Made by a program: the position numbers and the translations under genes. Shown in pieces: positions 6,002 to 30,504 of a DNA stretch of 36,297 nucleotides; position 1 is the first letter of the stretch; every line of letters begins with the position of its first letter. The DNA is taken from positions 1 through 36,297 of IMG/VR virus record IMGVR_UViG_3300044606_000119, one strand, 5' to 3'. The notes beneath the pieces were generated by a model. It ran no database searches. It saw nothing but the letters and a program-made list of their open reading frames with translations, and was not told the DNA's origin. Source of the DNA: a virus. Lineage: Duplodnaviria; Caudoviricetes.

Positions 6002-6160
6002 TTATCGAAACCTCACTTCATATATACGATCAGCCTCTTTGCTCCAGTCTCCAGGACGTCCCCATTGCTCAAGCCTATCGTTCAAAAAATAAAGCCAGTA
6101 AGCTTCAGCAAGGCTGCCATCGGCCCAATTATGCTTTCGATATTCCCATATTTCAACTAG
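6002..6160 (-). pseudogene. Probable C-terminal remnant of an envelope (lipo)protein gene
   Basis: VEIWEY...YWLYFLNDRLEQWGRPGDW reads like a real folded domain, but its upstream part runs through the 6158-6211 operator/promoter with no credible start or signal. Confidence 0.35.
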
Positions 6161-6182: not shown

Positions 6183-6211
6183 TTGACAAATGCCGTAAAG
6201 TGTTCTATAGT
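6183..6211 (+). promoter_or_regulatory. Near-consensus sigma70 promoter for the regulator-integrase operon
   Basis: TTGACA-17 bp-TATAGT; palindrome TAGATA-GTAAT-TATCTA at 6158-6174 just upstream. Confidence 0.8.
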
Positions 6212-6698: not shown

Positions 6699-7793
6699 AT
6701 GGCCCGTTACAAAGTAGAGCGCTGCCGCGCCTGCGGCTACCGTCATAACGAACCAAAGCCCGGCAAAGTCAACAAGCCATGCCCGCGCTGCGGTACAGAA
6801 ATGTACTACTCAAAGAACTGGTACATCAGCTACCAGACCGAAGGCGTGAAGTACGTCGAAGCGGTCTCCCCGCGTGCCATGGATGCGGACGATGCCGTCT
6901 CCAAGCGCAAAGTGCAGATCCGCGAGAACCGCTTTTTCGACATCAAAGCTGATATACCTTGGCATAGCGCCGTCGAAAAACTCCGGAGCACATACAACCG
7001 CATCAAGAGCGCCACATGCCGCATGTATGAAAACAGCATTGCCCAGCTGGAAGCGCATGGCTTCAAGCGTTATCGCCTTACGGACCCCGACTTCCCCGAC
7101 CGGATCGCCGACTTCATCAGCCACCGGCAAAACCACGTAACAAACGCCAGCATCAACCGCGACCTTGCCACCCTCAAACGCATGGCAAAGCTCTGCAAAC
7201 TCTACGACCTGTTCAACGAAATCCGCATGCTCCCCGAGAACAACGAGCGCATACGGTACCTCACGGAAGCCGAGCAGGCAGCGCTGCTGCAGGCATGTGA
7301 AAGCCCGCAGATGCGCATGGCCGTGCTCATCGCGCTCAACACCGGATTGCGCGCCGACGGCGTATATAAAATGATGTGGGAGCACATCGATTTCCAAACC
7401 ATGACGATCACGCGCCAGGTCAAGCGCGACAAGCAGATCAACATACCGCTGACACCGCAGCTTGCCCACGAACTCAAGGAATATCGCAAACAGAGCATCC
7501 TGTCAAAATACGTCTTTCCCAGCCCCGTGAAAAGCGGCGAATCCATCCGGAGCGACAACCGGCGAGGCTTCAAAAACGCCTGCACCCGAGCGGGCATAAC
7601 CGACTTTCGCTTTCACGACCTCCGCCATACCTTTGCCACATGGTTTTTGTACCGCACCCGCGACAAGCGGGCCCTGCAGGAAATACTCGGCCATAGCGAC
7701 AGCCGCATGACCGACCGCTACGCACATATCCTCGACGAACACAAACGCGAAGCCATGCAGAAATTCGCAGACGCTGCGGCAGGAAATACATGA
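6699..7793 (+). CDS. int: Tyrosine integrase with N-terminal zinc ribbon
   Basis: Catalytic TGLR, HDLRH, LGH and RY motifs; N-terminal CRAC...CPRC; AAGGAG SD. Confidence 0.96.
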   Translation: MARYKVERCRACGYRHNEPKPGKVNKPCPRCGTEMYYSKNWYISYQTEGVKYVEAVSPRAMDADDAVSKRKVQIRENRFFDIKADIPWHSAVEKLRSTYNRIKSATCRMYENSIAQLEAHGFKRYRLTDPDFPDRIADFISHRQNHVTNASINRDLATLKRMAKLCKLYDLFNEIRMLPENNERIRYLTEAEQAALLQACESPQMRMAVLIALNTGLRADGVYKMMWEHIDFQTMTITRQVKRDKQINIPLTPQLAHELKEYRKQSILSKYVFPSPVKSGESIRSDNRRGFKNACTRAGITDFRFHDLRHTFATWFLYRTRDKRALQEILGHSDSRMTDRYAHILDEHKREAMQKFADAAAGNT

Positions 7794-8091: not shown

Positions 8092-8167
8092 GCCGAAGTA
8101 GCTCAGCTGGTAGAGCAGCTCACTCGTAATGAGCAGGTCGACGGTTCAAATCCGTTCTTCGGCTCCA
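8092..8167 (+). tRNA. tRNA-Thr(CGT), complete with encoded CCA
   Basis: Acceptor GCCGAAG/CTTCGGC; D arm GCTC/GAGC; anticodon arm GCTCA-CTCGTAA-TGAGC; T arm GACGG-TTCAAAT-CCGTT; 76 nt. Confidence 0.97.
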
Positions 8168-9806: not shown

Positions 9807-9855
9807 AGAAATAAACAATCTAATAGATTGTATCACTATCACCGCGCAAAGTCCA
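9807..9855 (-). promoter_or_regulatory. Lysis-cassette promoter with overlapping operator
   Basis: TGGACT-17 bp-TACAAT with extended TG; palindrome ACAATCTA-A-TAGATTGT at 9815-9831. Confidence 0.6.
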
Positions 9856-12800
9856 TGATGTCGAGATACTGCGGCCTGACCATGGTCGGTGTCTGCATGA
9901 TCATCCGGATATCCTGCGGTACGACTTTGTTGATCAGCTCGCGTTCAATCATCTGGCTATCAATCACCACGCCATTGTCGGCAGCCTTGGCAATACTGGT
10001 TGCCAGTCGGTCAGGATCACCCTGCATCAGCGCATCGATGATTCCGTCAACCGCCTGTTTGGTCTTGTCCTGATACTGCCTGGTGTAATACTGCCGCACC
10101 TGCTCAACATCGGCGAGCTTGGCTTCCTGCAGCGGCCTGAACCCGGTCCCCTTGGCGATCACATCAGACATCGTTGCATGATACTTCATCCGTTCGCGCC
10201 GGAGCGGATCAGCAACGTCCATGTTGTTCAGGGCCGTCTCGATCGCCGTCAGAATGTTGCCGACTGATGGTGTCAGTGACCGCACCAGTTCAGTCCTGTC
10301 GGCTCCTTTTTCGAGCACCTTTTTTGCCTGCAGCACGGTGCCGATCGTCGGACCGAGCAGGTCTGACGGACGCTTCGGCAGGATATCGCCGGTCCCGGTA
10401 CGCTTTGAAATATCCACACCCACCTGCGAACCCACCCCGTACAGAACGATCTCAGCCACGCGTTTCCGCGCACCGTCAGCGCCAGCCCATTGCATGAGAG
10501 AACCTTTCACTTCCAACAGCGGGTCCTTCCCGGTCAGCCATTCGATAAACTCGGCAAGCCCCTCAACCAGCGGAATTCCCATGACACCGGCAATCAACAG
10601 AACCGGCACCCAGAACTTGATATGCTCGGCCCCTTTCAGTCCCATGATCGCTTCGATCTGCTTAATGGCATACGGCTTGAATTGCCCCAGCAGACGGCCT
10701 GCCGGATTGCGAAAGATGCGGGCTGTATCGGCCACCGAGTAATTGAACTGCGTTTCATCGACCATGCGCCGCGCATACTGCCGCGCCTGCCGCTCAGCAT
10801 ACCCGAGTCCCGTGCGCGCATAGCGGTATGCGGCAAGTGCGGTAACAACCCGGTTCGCCCGCTCCGCTGCCTGAAAGAAGACCATCGAAGCTTGCACTGC
10901 CATGCCGCCCTTGTGTGCCATCGAATACCCGCCGGTATCACCCAGCCCCAGATCATACGGCACGCCGATCCGCCGGAGCACCGCACGGTCAGCGTCAGTC
11001 AGGTGCATGGCACGCTGCAGCGCCCATGCAAAATGCTCAGCCGGCAGCTTGGCGAAGGTATTCACCAGCTGCGTCAGGTTCACCACGCCGGCAGACAGGT
11101 TGAACAGGCCCAGCTTCATCACACCGGTCAAGTGCAGCAGCTTGTTCACCGTCCAGATCGTCGGCCGCTCAGTACGGACAAACGCGCCGAGATACCGCTT
11201 CATCGAGGCATCGATCAAGTCCTCCACCATTCCGGGAGCGCCATTCAGATCATTGATATATTCCTGCACATACCGGGCAATGTTCCTGTCCCGGAGCGCC
11301 TGATCCCCGCGCCCCAGCTCCACCCCGAAATCCTTTTCAAACTTTGGCACAACCCGCGCCTTGAAATCGTCCAGCGCCAGATACCGGGCAGTGGAATCGT
11401 AGTAATGTTTCAGGATATCGTGCAGATCGTCCCGGACAAAGCCGCTCTGCCCCGAGCGTTTCATTGCCGGTCCGAACATGCGCCGTCTTGATTTACGCCG
11501 CGCCACATCGTTCACCAGATCAAACGCCTGATCCCTATTTAGCGTAAATGCGTTTTCCACCTTCTCCACCAGCTTGAAGTAACTGGCATCCTTCAGAATC
11601 GTGCGCTGAATCACCTCATCCGGCAACCGGAACGTCTTCGGCTGTATCCGATACTGTTGCGCCGGATTCAGCGCATTGGCGAAGCTGACCGCTTCGCGCA
11701 GACTCCTGAATGTACCCGCAATACCCGCATTGTTTCCCTGAGCATCCACCTCGTACACATTCCAGTTTTCAAACAGATGCGGCACATGGCCCTCGCGTTT
11801 ACCCATTGCGCCGCCATATGCCTTCCGGTGCGCGCTCAGCATGCGCCATACCTGATTATGGAACGTCCGCCATGTCCCATATGCCTGCTGCACCGGAGCG
11901 CTCACCCCCATCTGCTGCAGCTCCGCCGGGCTGAATTCCTTGCCGAGCGCATCGCCCTCAAATGCGAGCGCAGTCAATTCCTCCATCAGCTCCCGGCGCC
12001 GGATCGGCCCAAATATCTCCTTCAGCTTGTCATGCGCGAGCGCACGCAGACGGTCCTGCTTGAGCACCGCGTTTTTGCCGTGCACCACATAATACCTTGC
12101 CGGTCCCTCGATGCGGCCCGGCGATGCCAGCAGCGACTTGACAAAGCCCAGATCATGCGGCCGGTTCTGCACTGCGACATTGGCAGCGGCCTTCGGATTG
12201 ATCGATCTGAGCAGCCGCACCGCAGCATCATAGAGCTGCGACATCCCCATAAAATCGAGCGTCACCACCGATGATCCGCCCCGGCTCCGCTCCGGCATCA
12301 TCACATCGGTCACCGGCCGGTGCTTCGTCAGTCGTTCAAATACGGCAGGAGCCTCATCGCCGGCCGGCACAAACCAGCGCGTTTCGTACTGCACCCGTTC
12401 GCTGAACAGGCCGGCGCGCTGCAGCTCCGCCGCATACGGATACAGACTTTCGCTGGCGATCAGCTCCACGCGGCGCTCGCCAGCCACACGGGCCCGGCGC
12501 ACCTTCCAGCCGTTAGCCAGCATGATCGTAGCGCCATCGTCAAGAATCATCCGTATGGCATTGTCCGGAGACACCGCTTCTTTCGTGCGGTTTGCCCCGA
12601 GCCGCCGGAGCGTTTCATCGATCACCCGGTTGGGGATTTCCCGGCCGATCAACCTGCGGCCGTCATCCGTCTGCACCCGCACCACGCGGGTCCGTCCTGC
12701 AGACAGCCGATCCCAGATCGGCAGCAACGCGCCGATTATCAGATGCACCCGCTCGCTCCGGTATTGCGGCACATCGGCGGATGCCTTTTCCCAGAGCGCT

Positions 12801-15800
12801 TCGGCATCATGCAGCGCAACCGGCTCCCAGCCGTCCTGCTCCAGACGGTAATCAGGCATAACCTGTTCGCGCCCCTTTTCCGGCCCGACCAGCTTGACCT
12901 CGCCCGTGACGAGTCCATACTCATCCGTTCTGCTGCCATAATCCCGCACCGCCCAGATGCGGCCGCTCTTGCGGTTACGATAGAACCCCCTGAATTTGAC
13001 CATGTTCGCAGCATCAGTGAAGGAAACGAGCTTGTTCTTGTGCTTGACCTCCAGCTGCACATAGCTGGTAACCGCTCCGGTTTCCGGCTGCGTATAAACC
13101 GGCTTTTCCTCGACAATGGACACCGCATCGGCCTTCAGGTTTTCCATGCCGATATCCAGCTCTCCTGTAGCGATCGCCAGCTCCACATTTTTTTCGAGAC
13201 GTTCGTAAAATTCGTTGAATACATGGTTCTGCACATCGATCTGCAGCGACAACAGGCGGTTCAGAAACTGCGGCACATCCGGCAGTTTAGTGCTGTTGAG
13301 ATTACCGTTCCGGTCGATCATGCCGTCCAGTCCCATCATCCGCATGGTGGAGGCCAAATCCAGCCCGGCAATAGCATGGTTATGCAGATCACGGATGAAC
13401 TGCTCAATCGCATCGTTTGCGTATACACTTTCGAGATTGTCCTTTTCGCTGAAGAGTCCCTGCGCCCCCGCGTCGCGCTGTCCGCGCGTCATTGCCCCGA
13501 GCTGATTCAGCCGCCGGGCGATCGACGAGAGAAAGCGCCGCTGCCCCTGCAGATCGGTCGTCACCAGCACATAATGCGGAGCCTGCGCCTGATTCGTCCG
13601 GTGCGTGCGGCCGAACCCCTGCACCGCCTTGTCGGCGCGCCACCCCGGCTGGATCAGATAATGAATGCGCTTGCGCCGGTTCTGGACCGTATTATCAGCG
13701 TGGAAACTGCGGCCGGTACTGCCGGCATCAGAAAAGACAAGGATACGCCGCTTGTCCTGCTGAAACTCTGCGGCTTCCTTTCCTGCGACGTGAGCGCTCC
13801 GGCGCTCCACAACCGTCTTGGTTTTGCCGCTCTCATCGGTCACGCGCACAATACGCTGCGTGCGGCCTGTTACTTCCGCTACCTGCTCGGACCCGAAATA
13901 GCCCAGAATATACTCAAGCGGCCCATCCGGCACCTTGAGACTGCCGAGCTGGTCGAGCAGCCGCTCCCGCATGGCAATCGCCTCAGCGCTCTGCACCGGA
14001 TTGCCATTGGAATCCTCTGCCGGCACAAAGCGCACCTCGCCGTCCGGTCCCATCACTTCCTGATAGACTTGCGTAGGAAATGCGTGTTCCAGGTACTGCA
14101 TCAGCGCCTCGCGCGGAGTCAGGTCGAGGTCCTCAAGATCGCCATCCTCATCCTTCACCTTTGCGTGCTGCCGTTTCTGCGTTGCCTCATTGGTATTGAC
14201 CAGCTGCAGCACGACCGCGTGGCCCGCATCGAGGTTCCGCTGGATATCCGACAGCACCGACGGCATCTGCATGGACGTAATGATCTGATTGAAAAACCGC
14301 TGATGCGCACCCCAGAACTGCGCCAGTGCCGCGCTCTTGGCCTTACTGTTTGAGCCCTGATTGGTCACCTGCAGCGCTTCATGGATGTTCTGCAGCACGA
14401 TCTGCCATGCCTCAGCAAGAGTATCGTAGATCGCCCGTTGCTCCGGTGTGAGCGCATGCTCAAGGCGGCCATAGGTAACATCATCGTAGGACAGTGACCG
14501 GGCATCATACACACCCATCGCCTTCATGTCGCGCGCCACCACTTCCATCGCAGCCAGCCCGCCAGAGGCGATCTTGTCGATAAAGTCCCGCTTGTTTGCA
14601 AATGCAGTGCCTTCACCCCAGAGCCCGAGCCGGTCAGCATACGCCAGATTGCGCACTTCAGTCGCACCGGTAGCGCTCACATAGACTACGCGGGCATTCG
14701 GCACCCGCCGCTGCAGCTCCATGCCTGCCAGCGCCTGCAGCGACGGCTTGGTCGATCCGCGTTTGCCCCGCATCGAGATGGCATTCTGCATATTATGGGC
14801 TTCGTCAAAGACCAGCACCCCGTCGAAATCATCGCCCAGCCATTGAATCAGCTGCTCCAGACGCGACTGCTTCGCGCCTTTTTTCTGCGCAAGCGCAGAG
14901 CCGGTATTGTTCGCTTCCGATCCGGTCGATATGAGCTTGTACGTGGTGAAGATGATGCCGTCCGTGGCCGCAATGTCCATACCGGCCTTGGTTTTGGCCT
15001 GCGGTACCAGCTTCTCAGGATCACCGCCGATATCCTTCCAGTCGCGCACCGCATCCATCACCAGCGCCTGACGCTCGGACACCCAGACCGCTTTTTTTCT
15101 GCCCTGATTGAAATTGTCGAGAATGATGCCGGATATCTCCCGGCCCTTGCCCACGCCGGTACCATCGCCGATAAAATATCCTTTACGCGTTCCGTCCGGC
15201 AGCGTCTGCTGGTGCGCCTGCCCGGCGTAGACAATCGCCTCCAGCTGCGCATCCGAAAACGCACCGCGCTCGATCAGTTTCCGGGAAAGGGTAGGGATAT
15301 AGGCAGGTGTCGGCGGTTCAACCGAAGCCATGGCCGCGCTCTGCACGAGCTTGCCGGGATGGGTCTTGGCTCCGGGTATTCTGACCTTTGCCGGCCGGTA
15401 CGTCTCAAATATGGCATCCGTCAGCTCGCCGGCGGCAGCCTTCGGATGTCCGGCAGCAATCTCAACCGTTATGCCCGGTTCGGGCTCTAGCCCTCCAGCT
15501 GCATCTCCCGGTAATCCGTCAGCAGGCGGTCGATCGACATCACTGCGTGCAGCTGTTCGGTCAACAGGCTCGCCGCTTCCTGCGGGCTGCGCTTGCGGAG
15601 ATCGCCCGCCACCACGTCCGGACCGTCGCCGCTGCGTTCCTCCGGCGGCCCCATCAGCAGGTAATCCAGCACCGCCTGCTGATCCTCCTCCTGCTGCAGC
15701 ACGTACAGGAAGTCCTCCATCATCCGCCGCTGATACCGGAAGTACGGTTCGTAATCCGTCCGCTCCAGATTCCACTGAATCAGCTGCAGCACGTACAGGC

Positions 15801-18800
15801 TGGTCAGTTCTGCTTTTACGCCCAGCGCCTGCAGGTGTTTGAGCGCTTCGCGGTTGAGCGGCAGGTTGTTGAGCTTCTTGATCTGCTGAAATGTCGCTGC
15901 GTTCATTGCGTATCCTCCCGAGCGCCGGAAGTGCATCGAGCACATCCTCATAGCGCTCCTTGATTACAGTATCGCCTGATGCCGGCACCTTGTCAATCAC
16001 CAGAATGCGGTTATCATAGGTAGTGCCGTACTTTTCATATCCCTTGCCGGAGAGCTCGATGATCGCGCGGAACGCATACTGTTTCTCGATCGTCGCAAAC
16101 CAGTCCCGCACCGCCCGGCTGTCACCGAGCTTCCACTTGCCGATCAGCGCCACCAGACGGCCCCCCGGCTCCAGCCGCTGCAACGCCTGATCGAGATGCT
16201 TGATCACATTGGCGCTGTCCCGCTGGCCCGGCACGCGGCCGGCCGTAGCAGAGAAGGGCGGATTCATCAGCACCACGGTCGGCTTGACTTCGGGCGGCAG
16301 GATATTGTGCAGCTGCTCGGCGTTTTCCGTAAAGACCGCAGCATAGCCCTGATCTTTGAGCAGCGCGGCGCGGCGCGGCGAAAGCTCGTTCACATAGACC
16401 TTGTCAACGTCAGCGCTTTTCGCCCACGACGCAAGGCCGCCGACACCGGCGGAGGGTTCCAGCACGGTATCGGAGCGGTTCAGATTCGCCGTCCATGCCA
16501 TTGCATACGCAAGGTCTGGCGGCGTGCTGAACTGCTGAAACTCATCCGTCTCGGCAGTGCGCAGACCGGACTGAGACGGAATCTTCTCCAGAATGACGCT
16601 GCGGATACGGCTTACATGGTATGCCGCTTCGGTAGCCAGATCGGTCGTAACGGCCGCGCGCGGCTGCTCAGCAATGAACTGGTTAATGCCAAGCTCAAGC
16701 GCATCAAACGCATCCTTCGGCGTATATTTGCCTTCGGACTTGCGGCCGCCGTATGCCTCGTTGGCAACGTCCCAGAGCTCTTTCTTGGTGAACGTCTGTC
16801 CCGTGGTCAGCTGGCGCTGCACCCAGTCAGCAATCATCATCGACGGATCGCCCTTGATCTGCTCAGGCTCCGCCGGAGCGGGTTGCTGCTTTTCACCTTC
16901 GGCGATCACTGGCTTTTCGGGTTCGGCTGCCGGACGTTCGGCAGCTTCATAGTACGGGTTATTGTAAGCATTCAATGTTTTGACCGATCCGGAGCTGTCC
17001 CTGATCGTAGCCATGCCATTACGATCCGGATTGATTACCTCATAAACCGTCCCGTCATACACATCGCGCACATAATCGCCCCGCCGGAAGGTGTGCAGGT
17101 TTACACCTATCGGTTCTGGCGCTTCGATCCGAGGGGATGCGTCTGGTGTTACTTCTTGTTGTTCAGGAACGGATGGAAGTTCGGACTTTCGGCCGCTGCG
17201 TGAAGCGCTTCGATTGTTCTTTGGTGAAAGGATTTTTTCGGTGCGGGCTCTGATTTCGTCTGCTGCTGCGGCAAGGTGCTTGCTGGTGATTGGGTCTGTT
17301 CGCTCATAATGACCTCCTTCGTTTTTAGTATACTCCGTATGCATGAGCAAGTCAAACAATGCCTGATCCGCAATGGTGAAATTGCCGCCGCTGCCCGAGA
17401 ACACCAGACGCGGCGAGCTGCCATCAGCATTGTTGTCGCGCAGGAGGAATTCCACATTCGGGTTATCCCGGTACCGGCGGAACATTTCAATAAACGTTGG
17501 CAATGATCGGTTCGCACCCTTGATGGTTGCCTCTTCAGGCACCGGTCGCACATGCTTGCCATCGCGTTTGTAGAGCTCGTCGCGTATGCCGATACGTACC
17601 CGTGCAGTGACAGGATCAACATACATCATCGACAGATTAACCTTGCCGCCTTTGCTCAACACCTTTTCGACCATGCCGTTCAGCAGCGCAAAGTTTGTCC
17701 CCTGCGAATCGTATATGACATGCTTGTCCGTGTCCAGTGCTTTCTGCAACAGTTCCTTGGCATACGCTGATGATTCCTCGTGTGCCTCATTGGTCGGCTC
17801 CAGACGCATGCGTTCCTTGTAATGATCGGAATTCACCTCGACAAACTGGCTCCGCACTGCCGGGTCCAATGCCTCCAATAACGAGCCCTTGCCCGAGCCG
17901 CCCACGCCGAGCGTTGCGATCAGTTCCTGCGGAGTTTCAGCGGTCGCGGTCGGCCGACCGTGAAAATAGTAGGCATCTACCTCCGGCTTGGTCAGCTGTG
18001 CGTTTTTATCCTTGCGGAGCTTTGCGAGCGCCGACCGGTAAAACGGTTCATAATCAACCGTTTCCAGAGGCGCTTGCGGCTTCTCTGCCACGGCAGGCTT
18101 TCCGGGTAGTAGCGTCTGTTCACCCATGGGTTGCGGCGCAGCGGCCGCCGAGGCCTGCGGGCCCGGTTCCGCAGCCGCCGCTTCCGGAGCGGCCTGCTGC
18201 TGAGCGCGCAGGCCGGCCTGATACTGTTGTTTTGCCTGCTCGCCTTCAGCCAGAATAGCGTCCATTTCCCTCGTTGCCGCATCCGCAAACGGATCGAAGT
18301 CCACCGGCTTCAGCGTGACCGGTTTTTCCCCTGCCTGCGGTATGGGTTCGGTCGAAACAGGCGCTTCCTGAGCCTCTGGCGAAGCCGGTTTTTTCGGTAT
18401 CGTCTGTTCACCCATGGGTTGCGGCGCAGCGGCCGCCGAGGCCTGCGGGCCCGGTTCCGCAGCCGTCGCTTCCGGAGCGGCCTGCTCACCCGTGGCGCGC
18501 CGCCGGATCGCCTCCTGCTTGAAGGCAAGGGACATTTTCGCCAGATCAGCCTCTGAGAATCCCCGCTTCAGCATCGCATCGTAATTGGCGGCGAGCTCAT
18601 CAGGCGTAAGCGGCACCAGACCGCGTTCGTTGATCGTAGCCTTCCGGTACCACGTCGAATCCCTCACCGCCTGCATGCCGGCCTGCACCGGCCGCTTGGC
18701 AAACGGCGCACCGACCGCCGCCACCAGCGCAGCTCCCTCGATCGCCGCTTGCATCTGCGGATCGCGCGTCAATTTCTTTGCGCCATCTGCGACAACGGTC

Positions 18801-19333
18801 GCATAGACGGTAAACGGAAACGCCAGCAGTCCCTCGACAGTCTGGCCGTGAAACGTCTCGGCATGCGGTATGCTCTCTGCCCAGAACTGCTTGAGCGCGG
18901 CAGTCGAACCTGCCCAGTCCACCTCGCCGCGCGTCAGCTTCTGGCGCAGCACATCACCGATCCAGCCGGCCGCTCCCGCCGGAATCGCCACCGTTGCACC
19001 GACCAGACCGGCCATCGTCTCGCTGACCGGGTCGTGGGGCAGCTCCTCGCGCTGTCCGCTGGGCAGCGTGGTGGCATCGCCCTGATCGATCAGCTGATCA
19101 CCCTCCAGATACCGGGGCTTGGGTTTGACGTGCGGATTGACTTTTTCGAGCTGGATGCCAGCCTTGTCGAGCACCGATGGCGCGTAGTCAGTCGCAAAGG
19201 CCGCCGCTTCCGGCGGCAGCGCATCGGGATCATTGACCGGCGCAAACGGGTCGTAGTCTACCGGTCTCAGCGTCGGGGCAGCGGCGGCCGGATGAGCAAA
19301 CGGGTCGATGTCTACCGGTACCAGACGCGCCAT
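9839..19333 (-). CDS. Giant polyvalent internal virion protein (~3164 aa): Zeta-like P-loop kinase, N6-adenine MTase, Strawberry-notch SF2 helicase; DarB-like
   Basis: GVGGSGKG/NSDHYK/HEESS (Zeta-like); EPSAGVG and NPPF (MTase); GDGTGVGKG, DEAH, QGFGRTHR (Sno helicase). Located after the ejection proteins. Start MARLVPVD at 19333 follows the upstream stop at 19335. Confidence 0.9.
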   Translation of the reverse strand: MARLVPVDIDPFAHPAAAAPTLRPVDYDPFAPVNDPDALPPEAAAFATDYAPSVLDKAGIQLEKVNPHVKPKPRYLEGDQLIDQGDATTLPSGQREELPHDPVSETMAGLVGATVAIPAGAAGWIGDVLRQKLTRGEVDWAGSTAALKQFWAESIPHAETFHGQTVEGLLAFPFTVYATVVADGAKKLTRDPQMQAAIEGAALVAAVGAPFAKRPVQAGMQAVRDSTWYRKATINERGLVPLTPDELAANYDAMLKRGFSEADLAKMSLAFKQEAIRRRATGEQAAPEATAAEPGPQASAAAAPQPMGEQTIPKKPASPEAQEAPVSTEPIPQAGEKPVTLKPVDFDPFADAATREMDAILAEGEQAKQQYQAGLRAQQQAAPEAAAAEPGPQASAAAAPQPMGEQTLLPGKPAVAEKPQAPLETVDYEPFYRSALAKLRKDKNAQLTKPEVDAYYFHGRPTATAETPQELIATLGVGGSGKGSLLEALDPAVRSQFVEVNSDHYKERMRLEPTNEAHEESSAYAKELLQKALDTDKHVIYDSQGTNFALLNGMVEKVLSKGGKVNLSMMYVDPVTARVRIGIRDELYKRDGKHVRPVPEEATIKGANRSLPTFIEMFRRYRDNPNVEFLLRDNNADGSSPRLVFSGSGGNFTIADQALFDLLMHTEYTKNEGGHYERTDPITSKHLAAAADEIRARTEKILSPKNNRSASRSGRKSELPSVPEQQEVTPDASPRIEAPEPIGVNLHTFRRGDYVRDVYDGTVYEVINPDRNGMATIRDSSGSVKTLNAYNNPYYEAAERPAAEPEKPVIAEGEKQQPAPAEPEQIKGDPSMMIADWVQRQLTTGQTFTKKELWDVANEAYGGRKSEGKYTPKDAFDALELGINQFIAEQPRAAVTTDLATEAAYHVSRIRSVILEKIPSQSGLRTAETDEFQQFSTPPDLAYAMAWTANLNRSDTVLEPSAGVGGLASWAKSADVDKVYVNELSPRRAALLKDQGYAAVFTENAEQLHNILPPEVKPTVVLMNPPFSATAGRVPGQRDSANVIKHLDQALQRLEPGGRLVALIGKWKLGDSRAVRDWFATIEKQYAFRAIIELSGKGYEKYGTTYDNRILVIDKVPASGDTVIKERYEDVLDALPALGRIRNERSDISADQEAQQPAAQPRSAQTPAGAGRKSRTDQPVRAAADSVESGADGLRTVLPVSAADDGGLPVRAAAGGGSAGGAGLPADGAAGGTQRRRSGRGGGRSPQAQPAGSGEPVDRTAARSDVDRPPADGLPGDAAGGLEPEPGITVEIAAGHPKAAAGELTDAIFETYRPAKVRIPGAKTHPGKLVQSAAMASVEPPTPAYIPTLSRKLIERGAFSDAQLEAIVYAGQAHQQTLPDGTRKGYFIGDGTGVGKGREISGIILDNFNQGRKKAVWVSERQALVMDAVRDWKDIGGDPEKLVPQAKTKAGMDIAATDGIIFTTYKLISTGSEANNTGSALAQKKGAKQSRLEQLIQWLGDDFDGVLVFDEAHNMQNAISMRGKRGSTKPSLQALAGMELQRRVPNARVVYVSATGATEVRNLAYADRLGLWGEGTAFANKRDFIDKIASGGLAAMEVVARDMKAMGVYDARSLSYDDVTYGRLEHALTPEQRAIYDTLAEAWQIVLQNIHEALQVTNQGSNSKAKSAALAQFWGAHQRFFNQIITSMQMPSVLSDIQRNLDAGHAVVLQLVNTNEATQKRQHAKVKDEDGDLEDLDLTPREALMQYLEHAFPTQVYQEVMGPDGEVRFVPAEDSNGNPVQSAEAIAMRERLLDQLGSLKVPDGPLEYILGYFGSEQVAEVTGRTQRIVRVTDESGKTKTVVERRSAHVAGKEAAEFQQDKRRILVFSDAGSTGRSFHADNTVQNRRKRIHYLIQPGWRADKAVQGFGRTHRTNQAQAPHYVLVTTDLQGQRRFLSSIARRLNQLGAMTRGQRDAGAQGLFSEKDNLESVYANDAIEQFIRDLHNHAIAGLDLASTMRMMGLDGMIDRNGNLNSTKLPDVPQFLNRLLSLQIDVQNHVFNEFYERLEKNVELAIATGELDIGMENLKADAVSIVEEKPVYTQPETGAVTSYVQLEVKHKNKLVSFTDAANMVKFRGFYRNRKSGRIWAVRDYGSRTDEYGLVTGEVKLVGPEKGREQVMPDYRLEQDGWEPVALHDAEALWEKASADVPQYRSERVHLIIGALLPIWDRLSAGRTRVVRVQTDDGRRLIGREIPNRVIDETLRRLGANRTKEAVSPDNAIRMILDDGATIMLANGWKVRRARVAGERRVELIASESLYPYAAELQRAGLFSERVQYETRWFVPAGDEAPAVFERLTKHRPVTDVMMPERSRGGSSVVTLDFMGMSQLYDAAVRLLRSINPKAAANVAVQNRPHDLGFVKSLLASPGRIEGPARYYVVHGKNAVLKQDRLRALAHDKLKEIFGPIRRRELMEELTALAFEGDALGKEFSPAELQQMGVSAPVQQAYGTWRTFHNQVWRMLSAHRKAYGGAMGKREGHVPHLFENWNVYEVDAQGNNAGIAGTFRSLREAVSFANALNPAQQYRIQPKTFRLPDEVIQRTILKDASYFKLVEKVENAFTLNRDQAFDLVNDVARRKSRRRMFGPAMKRSGQSGFVRDDLHDILKHYYDSTARYLALDDFKARVVPKFEKDFGVELGRGDQALRDRNIARYVQEYINDLNGAPGMVEDLIDASMKRYLGAFVRTERPTIWTVNKLLHLTGVMKLGLFNLSAGVVNLTQLVNTFAKLPAEHFAWALQRAMHLTDADRAVLRRIGVPYDLGLGDTGGYSMAHKGGMAVQASMVFFQAAERANRVVTALAAYRYARTGLGYAERQARQYARRMVDETQFNYSVADTARIFRNPAGRLLGQFKPYAIKQIEAIMGLKGAEHIKFWVPVLLIAGVMGIPLVEGLAEFIEWLTGKDPLLEVKGSLMQWAGADGARKRVAEIVLYGVGSQVGVDISKRTGTGDILPKRPSDLLGPTIGTVLQAKKVLEKGADRTELVRSLTPSVGNILTAIETALNNMDVADPLRRERMKYHATMSDVIAKGTGFRPLQEAKLADVEQVRQYYTRQYQDKTKQAVDGIIDALMQGDPDRLATSIAKAADNGVVIDSQMIERELINKVVPQDIRMIMQTPTMVRPQYLDIMDFAR
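15487..15906 (-). CDS. Nested +1-frame gene (139 aa, helical, acidic) inside the giant protein gene
   Basis: GGGAGG SD 7 nt before the ATG; strongly GC3-biased codons (CTG, CAG, GAG); the giant's frame here is an A/G/R/P-rich linker. Confidence 0.8.
   Translation of the reverse strand: MNAATFQQIKKLNNLPLNREALKHLQALGVKAELTSLYVLQLIQWNLERTDYEPYFRYQRRMMEDFLYVLQQEEDQQAVLDYLLMGPPEERSGDGPDVVAGDLRKRSPQEAASLLTEQLHAVMSIDRLLTDYREMQLEG
17149..17307 (-). CDS. Nested +1-frame small gene (52 aa) directly after the Zeta-like domain
   Basis: AAGGAGGT SD 4 nt before the ATG; MSEQTQSP...KKSFHQRTIEALHAAAESPNFHPFLNNKK. Confidence 0.6.
   Translation of the reverse strand: MSEQTQSPASTLPQQQTKSEPAPKKSFHQRTIEALHAAAESPNFHPFLNNKK
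18113..18486. repeat. 86-bp direct repeat (18113-18198 and 18401-18486) in the giant gene
   Basis: One mismatch; 288 bp apart; encodes QAAPEAxAAEPGPQASAAAAPQPMGEQT twice. Confidence 0.9.
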
Positions 19334-29532: not shown

Positions 29533-30504
29533 CTATTTTTTGCCGATGGCAAGAGCGAAGCCGGCGTCGTAGTCGTCCGGGTCGGCGCTGCCAGCAGCCG
29601 CGACCGGAAACGGTGTGCCGCCGGAGCCGCGCAGCGTTACGGTGTTCTGCAGTTTTTCTCGTTTTTCAGCAGCGTCACGCTGCCGGATTGCGGCCGCCTC
29701 GGGCGTGCCGCGATATTTTTTGTACTCACCGATCGCCCAGATCATATCGTCCGCGTCCAGACTGTCAAGCGCAGCATACCGCAATGCGGGACGCTGGCCT
29801 TCAGCCCATTGGAAAAATTCTGGGTTGGCGATCAGCCTGCCATCGGCATCCGTGCGCGCAACCAGCGATTCGTAATCGGGATGCGCTTGGAGCAGCTTCG
29901 GCTTCACCAGAGCCTCAAAGACCTGCCGCGAAGCATCGGCGGCGGCCTGCGACGATGACCGCTCCTGCCCCTGCTTGAGCGTTGCCACTTCGCTCCGCAG
30001 TTCGTTGAGCGTGGTGACCACGGCCTGCAGCGGCTGCTGCAGCTCGGGGTAGTCGGCGCTGACCTGCTCGATCATGTCATCGAGCTTTCCTTGCGCGTTG
30101 TCTACCGCCCGTTGGGCAGCGTCAACCCGCTCCTGCGAACCGGTGCCGGCCTTCAGCGCTGCAAGCTGCTGCTCCAGCGCCTTGTTGCGCTCCAGCAGCG
30201 TGGTAGCCCAGCGCTGCGTGTCGCGCAATGCCTTTTCGCGATGGTCTTCTTTGGGCGGAGCCTCAGCCGCCGGTTTCTCGGCAGGTGCATCAGCCGCCGG
30301 TGCGGCAGATGGCTGCTCGTCTGTGGCCGGTTCAGCTGCCGGTTCCGCAGTGTTGCTGCTGTCGTTGCTGCCCTGATCCTGCCCTGTTGCCTGTGCAAGC
30401 GCATAGCCGGCATCGTACTCAGCCGATGCGACCTGCCCAGTTTCCTGTTCTGCTGCGTCTGCTGCTGCCATGGATGCCTCCACTGTTTCGGGATTCGCCG
30501 TCAT
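29533..30504 (-). CDS. Capsid scaffolding protein
   Basis: Acidic, Ala-rich N-terminus, coiled coil, HPDY...FFQW; located between portal and capsid genes. Confidence 0.8.
   Translation of the reverse strand: MTANPETVEASMAAADAAEQETGQVASAEYDAGYALAQATGQDQGSNDSSNTAEPAAEPATDEQPSAAPAADAPAEKPAAEAPPKEDHREKALRDTQRWATTLLERNKALEQQLAALKAGTGSQERVDAAQRAVDNAQGKLDDMIEQVSADYPELQQPLQAVVTTLNELRSEVATLKQGQERSSSQAAADASRQVFEALVKPKLLQAHPDYESLVARTDADGRLIANPEFFQWAEGQRPALRYAALDSLDADDMIWAIGEYKKYRGTPEAAAIRQRDAAEKREKLQNTVTLRGSGGTPFPVAAAGSADPDDYDAGFALAIGKK

Follow-up and report, generated by a model that had tools for sequence, protein, structure and literature searches.

A conserved gene nested in the Zeta-fold kinase domain of a giant phage protein: a candidate kinase inhibitor with its own predicted promoter

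The locus

The window (the whole stretch of 36,297 nucleotides analysed here) is, by its gene content, a temperate phage record. It carries terminase, portal, major head and tail-fibre genes, an endolysin and an integrase, and the integrase together with an HTH repressor-like gene is the reason for calling the phage temperate. A tRNA-Thr(CGT) at 8092-8167 (+), just past the integrase (6699-7793), is a likely attachment site. The lysogeny region has divergent consensus promoters, TTGACA-17-TATAGT at 6183-6211 (+) and TTGAAA-17-CATAAT at 6156 (-), and further consensus promoters lie at 29768 and 34760 (-).

Amid the virion genes lies one very large gene, referred to here as the giant (Table 1). 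Its frame is open from 19543, from which residues are numbered, and its start was placed at a later Met at which a 95%-identical relative also begins. The protein combines a Zeta-like kinase, a DNA methyltransferase-like region, a strawberry-notch helicase made of two modules and a PLxRFG-like tail (a match to NF032893 is below cut-off). With several unrelated enzymatic domains in one large protein encoded amid virion genes, it is a polyvalent protein, and its gene position and the description of such proteins in PMC5512222 suggest that it is probably packaged and injected into the host. Pfam gives no match to a MuF domain in the giant, and the kinase is internal rather than C-terminal. Upstream of the kinase motifs an Ala/Pro-rich linker segment is duplicated (giant aa 361-380 and 457-476, at ~18460 and ~18175, -); the 95%-identical relative P0120 has no match to either copy.

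Table 1. Features of the giant gene and of the genes nested in it (window coordinates)
Feature	Position	Strand	Remark
Giant polyvalent virion-region gene	9839..19333	-	3164 aa from the likely start at 19333
Zeta-fold kinase domain	17213..18046	-	giant aa ~500-777; its C-terminal hairpin and helices share DNA with the nested gene
Walker A loop GVGGSGKG	17885..17908	-	giant-frame reading
Asp573, aligned to zeta toxin catalytic base Asp67	17825..17827	-	Asp in 36 of 39 rows with a residue
Predicted sigma-70 promoter TTGACT-17-TATACT	17327..17355	-	giant frame reads F-D-x6-Y
Shine-Dalgarno (SD) AAGGAGGT	17312..17319	-	4 nt before ATG 17307
Nested 52-codon gene, +1 frame	17149..17307	-	stop 17151-17149
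Second predicted promoter TTGACA-17-GATACT	15968..15996	-	upstream of the second nested ORF
Second nested +1-frame ORF, 139 aa	15487..15906	-	after the methyltransferase-like domain, ATG 15906

The Zeta-fold kinase domain

What kind of kinase does the giant carry, and where does it end? The motifs GVGGSGKG, NSDHYK, HEESS and IYDSQG, from which a first-pass annotation had recognised a Zeta-like domain, are all present in the giant frame, and the region matches Pfam Zeta_toxin (PF06414) above cut-off (giant aa 546-678, E 1.4e-8, 34.9 bits against 22.3). The AlphaFold2 model of the domain has a pLDDT of 95. Its best structural matches (Foldseek, VIA-align) are zeta, AvrRxo1 and PezT, with Z of 17.0, 16.7 and 15.8, ahead of polynucleotide kinases; the comparison with 1gvn (Z 17.0) aligns 208 residues with an rmsd of 4.5. 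Profile alignment places zeta Lys46 on Lys552 and Asp67 on Asp573, and PezT Arg157 and Arg170 on two conserved arginines. At the Walker A Ser/Thr position the window has Gly553, whereas all 39 other aligned rows with a residue there have Ser or Thr; as a result, the window's own copy of the kinase may be weak.

Phosphorylation of UDP-GlcNAc, the known activity of Zeta and PezT kinases, is doubtful here. The zeta residues Thr118 and Arg120, which contact UDP-GlcNAc (PMC3062530), have no counterpart: their columns hold Gln614 and Thr616 in the window, and in the family Thr occurs in 5 of 41 and Arg in 1 of 41, in a comparison made by sequence-profile alignment rather than structural superposition. 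In AvrRxo1, too, the ATP residues are retained and the UDP-GlcNAc motif is absent; its product is 3'-NADP (PMC5087710). We predict a kinase acting on a nucleotide-type substrate, probably not UDP-GlcNAc.

The end of the domain had been set near 17310, at the start of the nested gene. AlphaFold2 extends it by about 30 codons beyond the nested ATG, to ~17213, with a hairpin (giant aa 738-748) and helices (aa 754-777) packed into the kinase domain at a pLDDT of 87-98, and relatives conserve the giant-frame helix after Y-E-R. Because the hairpin and helices belong to the domain, the first ~30 nested codons overlap folded kinase.

The nested gene and its signals in the window

The Shine-Dalgarno AAGGAGGT, the ATG and the 52-aa +1-frame ORF are found just as the first-pass annotation gave them. 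Signals were scored against the sigma-70 consensus hexamers and the anti-SD, and AAGGAGGT forms the best anti-SD duplex among 485 ATG/GTG/TTG triplets within the giant gene. The peptide has a hydrophilic first half, lying over the kinase helix, and a likely helical second half over the giant's linker. Is this more than chance? Upstream of the nested ATG, the +1 frame already runs for 106 codons without a stop. In a recoding null, in which the giant's residues are fixed and synonymous codons are redrawn, a start with an SD of <= -6 kcal and 43 open codons appears in 40% of trials for the window alone, so the case for a nested gene rests on the relatives.

The annotation had missed a near-consensus predicted sigma-70 promoter just upstream of the nested gene, one of 7 sites scoring at least 10 of 12 in the whole 36-kb window. 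No conserved in-frame restart of the giant follows it, so that the small protein is its likely product. Neither a terminator-like site on the minus strand of the giant nor a stable hairpin after the nested stop was found. Among the listed strain variants of the window, two fall in the nested ORF (L35F and one silent), both altering the giant, and five lie between the -35 box and the SD, with none in the boxes, the SD or the ATG; these are not counted as evidence because seven variants were left out of the listing and the downstream flank is equally quiet.

Conservation in relatives

A phmmer search gave 38 relatives at E <= 1e-10 among 115 matches, mostly within proteins of 1400-4700 aa whose other domains differ (InPase, ART-PolyVal, LPD3, ddrB-ParB, RadC, PBECR and SNF2 among the 20 scanned). 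Their DNA was retrieved with patterns of the catalytic core, not of the region under test. At all 19 loci of the kinase subfamily, window included, an SD, a start and an ORF of 43-81 codons occur at the same aligned position. These comprise 15 distinct loci (again with the window), two near-duplicates (L022 and L026) excluded from the 15-locus controls, and two fetched later; duplicates from the same contigs were dropped (L009, L012, L015, L025, L027, L051, L052, L054, L055, L057, L058, L061 and L062). Pairwise identity is 27-49% among the 13 compared of the 15 distinct loci, distances at which silent sites appear to be saturated, and the locus counts below share ancestry and are hence not fully independent.

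Across the 15 distinct loci the SD ranges from -6.2 to -12.7 kcal, and only 2.7% of 814 other +1-frame ATGs in the same genes combine an SD of <= -6 with 43 open codons. The start overlaps a giant Tyr written TAT in 14 of 14 cases; the fifteenth locus, L011, has Ser-Glu instead and a GTG start. Could the giant's residues account for all this? A conserved EGG in the giant frame had been named as a possible explanation of the SD, and for SD strength this largely holds (15 observed at <= -6 kcal against 11.0 expected from the giant's residues alone). The start (15 against 7.5), a frame open for at least 43 codons (15 against 5.2) and all three features together (15 against 1.7) exceed the synonymous null.

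The promoter is conserved as well. At the 15 loci it follows the pattern TTGA(C/T/A)N, 17 nt, TAnnn(T/A), ending 16-31 nt above the start (the -10 box of L014 is TATAGA). Under synonymous recoding of the same loci TTG is observed 15 times against 7.2 expected, TAnnnT 14 against 4.7 and both 14 against 2.8. In 12 of the 14 giants scanned the site passes a strict threshold, and in 9 of them it is the only one to do so. It came to light through a control: a Tyr 7-12 codons upstream of the start proved equally biased to TAT, and this Tyr is the -10 box. The TAT at the start Tyr was consequently dropped as sole evidence. At the level of codon choice, then, promoter boxes, start codon and open frame are retained beyond what the giant's residues require.

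The two loci fetched later served as a prospective test. L053 has the promoter, an SD, an ATG and a 64-codon ORF; L056 has an SD, an ATG, a 65-codon ORF and a TTGACA 60 nt upstream, with no good -10 box. The arrangement is absent from 23 + 2 distant Zeta-like loci, so it goes with one kinase subfamily. At L059 and L060 (5001 onward) the distant Zeta-like domain is followed by a further in-frame domain, with no hairpin, promoter or nested ORF. In L021 and L024 the kinase frame is interrupted (by a stop or frameshift, possibly an assembly error) while promoter, start and nested ORF are intact. The proposal that a nested gene was kept translatable along with the kinase domain is supported, at 19 of 19 loci and with neighbouring domains that differ among the giants.

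Five relatives lie in bacterial genome assemblies, one of them beside portal and tail genes on a contig of 2.97 Mb. Single-protein searches with the window domain gave none in viral contigs, phage records or near-length proteins; 6 of the 8 matches of one pattern search were not relatives, and 400 further genomes of one phylum plus 2 of one order yielded no new copies. At the protein level, the promoter signature [FLIV][DE]x6Y occurs in 24 of 31 embedded kinases and in 0 of 4 forms in which the kinase ends the gene (Fisher p 0.006; 44 rows, after removal of 5 gapped ones, 3 from another subfamily and 1 that was misaligned). The latter four retain the Tyr-Glu/Val start signature, at the protein level only, since searches returned no matching DNA for these forms or for the P0021 subgroup. 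The pattern fits a two-gene overlap that gained a promoter once embedded in a late gene, the kinase-ends-gene forms being known as protein only.

Selection on the nested peptide

Is the peptide itself under selection? The clear signal comes from one pair of loci, L010 and L026, which are 86% identical. Their flanks differ at 140 of 984 positions (14%, mostly giant third positions) and the nested region at 15 of 249 (6%), fewer than the flanks (p 2.5e-4), with 1 of 66 from promoter to SD. Of the 8 changes in nested codons 1-37, over the kinase helix, 7 affect the peptide and 3 affect the giant. Codons 38-81 have 7 changes; none of these changes the peptide, and 6 change the giant protein. Selection in this pair thus switches from the giant frame in the first half to the nested frame in the second, so that the constrained part of each frame overlies the free part of the other. 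The pair L002/L022 is mildly contrary, with 9 of 66 differences from promoter to SD, exceeding its flanks, and both nested changes altering the peptide; it is too close to inform on selection.

Between loci the peptides are only weakly alike (11-29% identity to that of the window; pair score z 3.3-3.4 over shuffles). The window's peptide has no significant similarity to those of L002, L053 and L056 (p 0.17-0.48), and L056 and L002 have a 16-residue stretch in common (p 0.001). Most are basic with one candidate amphipathic helix, and Ser/Thr-rich in places. Pfam gives no convincing family for the 15 nested peptides, ESM Atlas no usable match for the two submitted and PADLOC no match; none of the three kinase-linked peptides looked up in a collection of 15 billion proteins was present.

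Other nested ORFs in the giants

The second nested ORF of the window, after the methyltransferase-like domain, does use the same frame as the first, as had been noted, and has a predicted promoter of its own (Table 1). An antisense promoter-like site, TTGTCA-16-TATCAT at 15990-16017 (+), overlaps that promoter. The only relative found of the second nested ORF is 99% identical, with no distant homolog, and the giant linker over this ORF is 100% identical in the 95%-identical relative. From these two cases it had been proposed that each captured effector domain carries a nested regulator. In the window, the giant carries two units of this kind, with no nested gene behind its helicase modules, and because the other nested ORFs in relatives follow no recognised toxin domain, the general rule is unsupported: these giants often have nested genes where there is no toxin domain at all.

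A second +1-frame ORF begins a few codons from the stop of the kinase-linked ORF in four relatives (L016:6899-7180, L018:6836-7168, L053:5803 onward and L021:1235-1471), each pair of which is possibly a nested two-gene operon; that of L018 is weakly TnpV-like (E 0.29, below cut-off). SD-led +1-frame ORFs also lie ~190 codons downstream in L001 (4815-5015) and L013 (7292-7684), the former weakly TnpV-like (E 0.0013, below cut-off) and upstream of a methylase-SNF2 module. Short basic SD-led +1-frame ORFs of 41-46 aa, with no Pfam match, occur at L017:4961-5098, L001:1479-1601 and L016:5204-5341.

Comparison with known systems

Zeta-like kinases in polyvalent proteins have already been described (Iyer et al. 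2017, PMC5512222), there as here as one domain of a giant phage protein encoded amid virion genes. That work proposes cell-wall precursors as the target, a choice not favoured by the residues of the present kinase; its main text contains neither 'overlapping' nor 'promoter', and its zeta passage names no partner gene. With epsilon/zeta and PezAT, as described in PMC3062530 and PMC10532202, the kinase shares the fold, the P-loop Lys, the catalytic Asp and the equivalents of PezT R157 and R170. It differs in lacking the Thr118/Arg120 pair that zeta and PezT keep and in lying within a 3164-aa protein. The partner had been likened to the small antitoxins of those kinases, and this likeness fails: their antitoxins are three-helix bundles of 90-158 aa (90 aa in epsilon), the gene here is nested downstream and encodes 52 aa, the family's peptides are shorter (43-81 aa), and 0 of 15 match a Pfam antitoxin family.

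A parallel may be drawn with AvrRxo1:Arc1, also a Zeta-fold kinase without the UDP-GlcNAc motif, followed by a small downstream antitoxin gene, whose authors suggest that the 3' part of the toxin gene is conserved to preserve antitoxin expression (PMC4938570). There, as described, the genes are separate, Arc1 has 81-98 aa and 3-4 helices, and identity is only 15-17%; by inspection, the Arc1 motif KExFD(x25-27)(Y/L)ExxYY is absent from the 15 nested peptides. In temperate phages, cognate immunity genes that diverge quickly lie downstream of MuF toxins (PMC12226406), and such modules (also PMC11699363) share with the present case a toxin-like domain on a temperate-phage virion protein and then a small fast-diverging gene. 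In the accounts given there MuF toxin domains are C-terminal and their immunity genes separate; here the kinase domain is internal, which would explain why the partner is nested.

Nesting has precedents too, as with lambda Rz1 within Rz. Same-strand nested genes include comS in srfA and gndA in gnd (PMC11230408). All three resemble the gene described here in being small and out of frame within a larger gene to which their function relates; unlike them, it has a conserved predicted promoter of its own and accompanies one domain from gene to gene. The separate parts (Zeta domains in polyvalent proteins, nested genes and downstream antitoxins) are thus all known, and a search of the open-access literature found no nested partner of a Zeta domain.

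What does the nested gene encode?

Conservation of start, frame and promoter makes the nested 52-codon ORF almost certainly a real gene. It could instead be a by-product, with the motifs merely following from a conserved kinase helix and hairpin (F-D, Y, G-G, Y-E-R); both tyrosines do lie on hairpin strands in the AlphaFold2 model, the giant's residues suffice for the SD strength and the window by itself is not significant. The silent-site pattern, the codon choice and the open frame lie far above the synonymous null, which makes a by-product highly improbable. Selection might instead act on the promoter, with the ORF serving only as a leader, either to hand ribosomes on to a second nested gene or to maintain translation of the transcript. 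The adjacent second ORFs of L016, L018, L021 and L053 would suit such a leader, yet most loci, window included, lack one, and codons 38-81 of L010/L026 are conserved at the amino-acid level; we regard a leader as quite improbable.

Is its product, then, a partner of the kinase? We consider this reasonably likely. The main rival is a passenger, a real accessory gene expressed in the lysogen (a regulator, an anti-defence or an exclusion factor) that would travel with the end of the kinase only because its promoter and start are locked into kinase codons. Other nested genes recur in giants with no toxin adjoining, and the peptides are mostly basic and hardly alignable, as a passenger's might be. 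It sits badly with the strict one-to-one pairing with the kinase subfamily across giants of different make-up and with the start signature still retained by the four kinase-ends-gene forms, and we hold it to be unlikely, while still deserving of weight. A partner need not be an inhibitor: an activator, a chaperone, a protein substrate or a packaging adaptor would draw on the same linkage evidence, the substrate pocket is unlike that of UDP-GlcNAc kinases and the peptides are Ser/Thr-rich in places. A helper of a late gene should, however, need no host-type promoter of its own, and such roles seem improbable.

The reading we prefer, with a probability of about 0.5, is that the conserved nested gene, led by a predicted sigma-70 promoter of its own, encodes a cognate inhibitor, an antitoxin or immunity protein, of the Zeta-fold kinase. 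Its layout, by analogy, is that of the MuF modules and of AvrRxo1:Arc1: a toxin-fold enzyme, here on a probably injected protein, and a separate fast-diverging partner. Kinase and small gene would move as one cassette between unrelated giant virion genes, and host RNA polymerase would transcribe the small gene independently of the late operon. The peptide might bind the kinase via its amphipathic helix. A lysogen would thereby be supplied with inhibitor should the giant gene leak or a related phage inject its giant protein, and the cell producing virions would be protected as well. On infection of a new cell, the injected kinase would be active only for the time before transcription of the incoming DNA. 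More tentatively, and with somewhat less confidence than in the inhibitor itself, the kinase's last codons may spell the inhibitor's promoter, ribosome site and start, making a complete toxin-immunity cassette in one exchangeable domain.

Implications

No immunity gene is visible for the toxin-like domains that polyvalent virion proteins carry in the middle of the chain. Gene catalogues miss nested proteins of this kind (0 of 3 looked up), and what pass for conserved residues and linkers of giants can be constraints of a promoter and a second gene. If the inhibitor reading is true, survival of the producing cell and of the lysogen would be explained by a nested partner with its own transcription, and an injected kinase would be self-limiting once the DNA is read. 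Lysogens would get allele-specific immunity to the virions of kin, domains could be shuffled as units, and a phage could stack toxic domains anywhere in an injected polyprotein.
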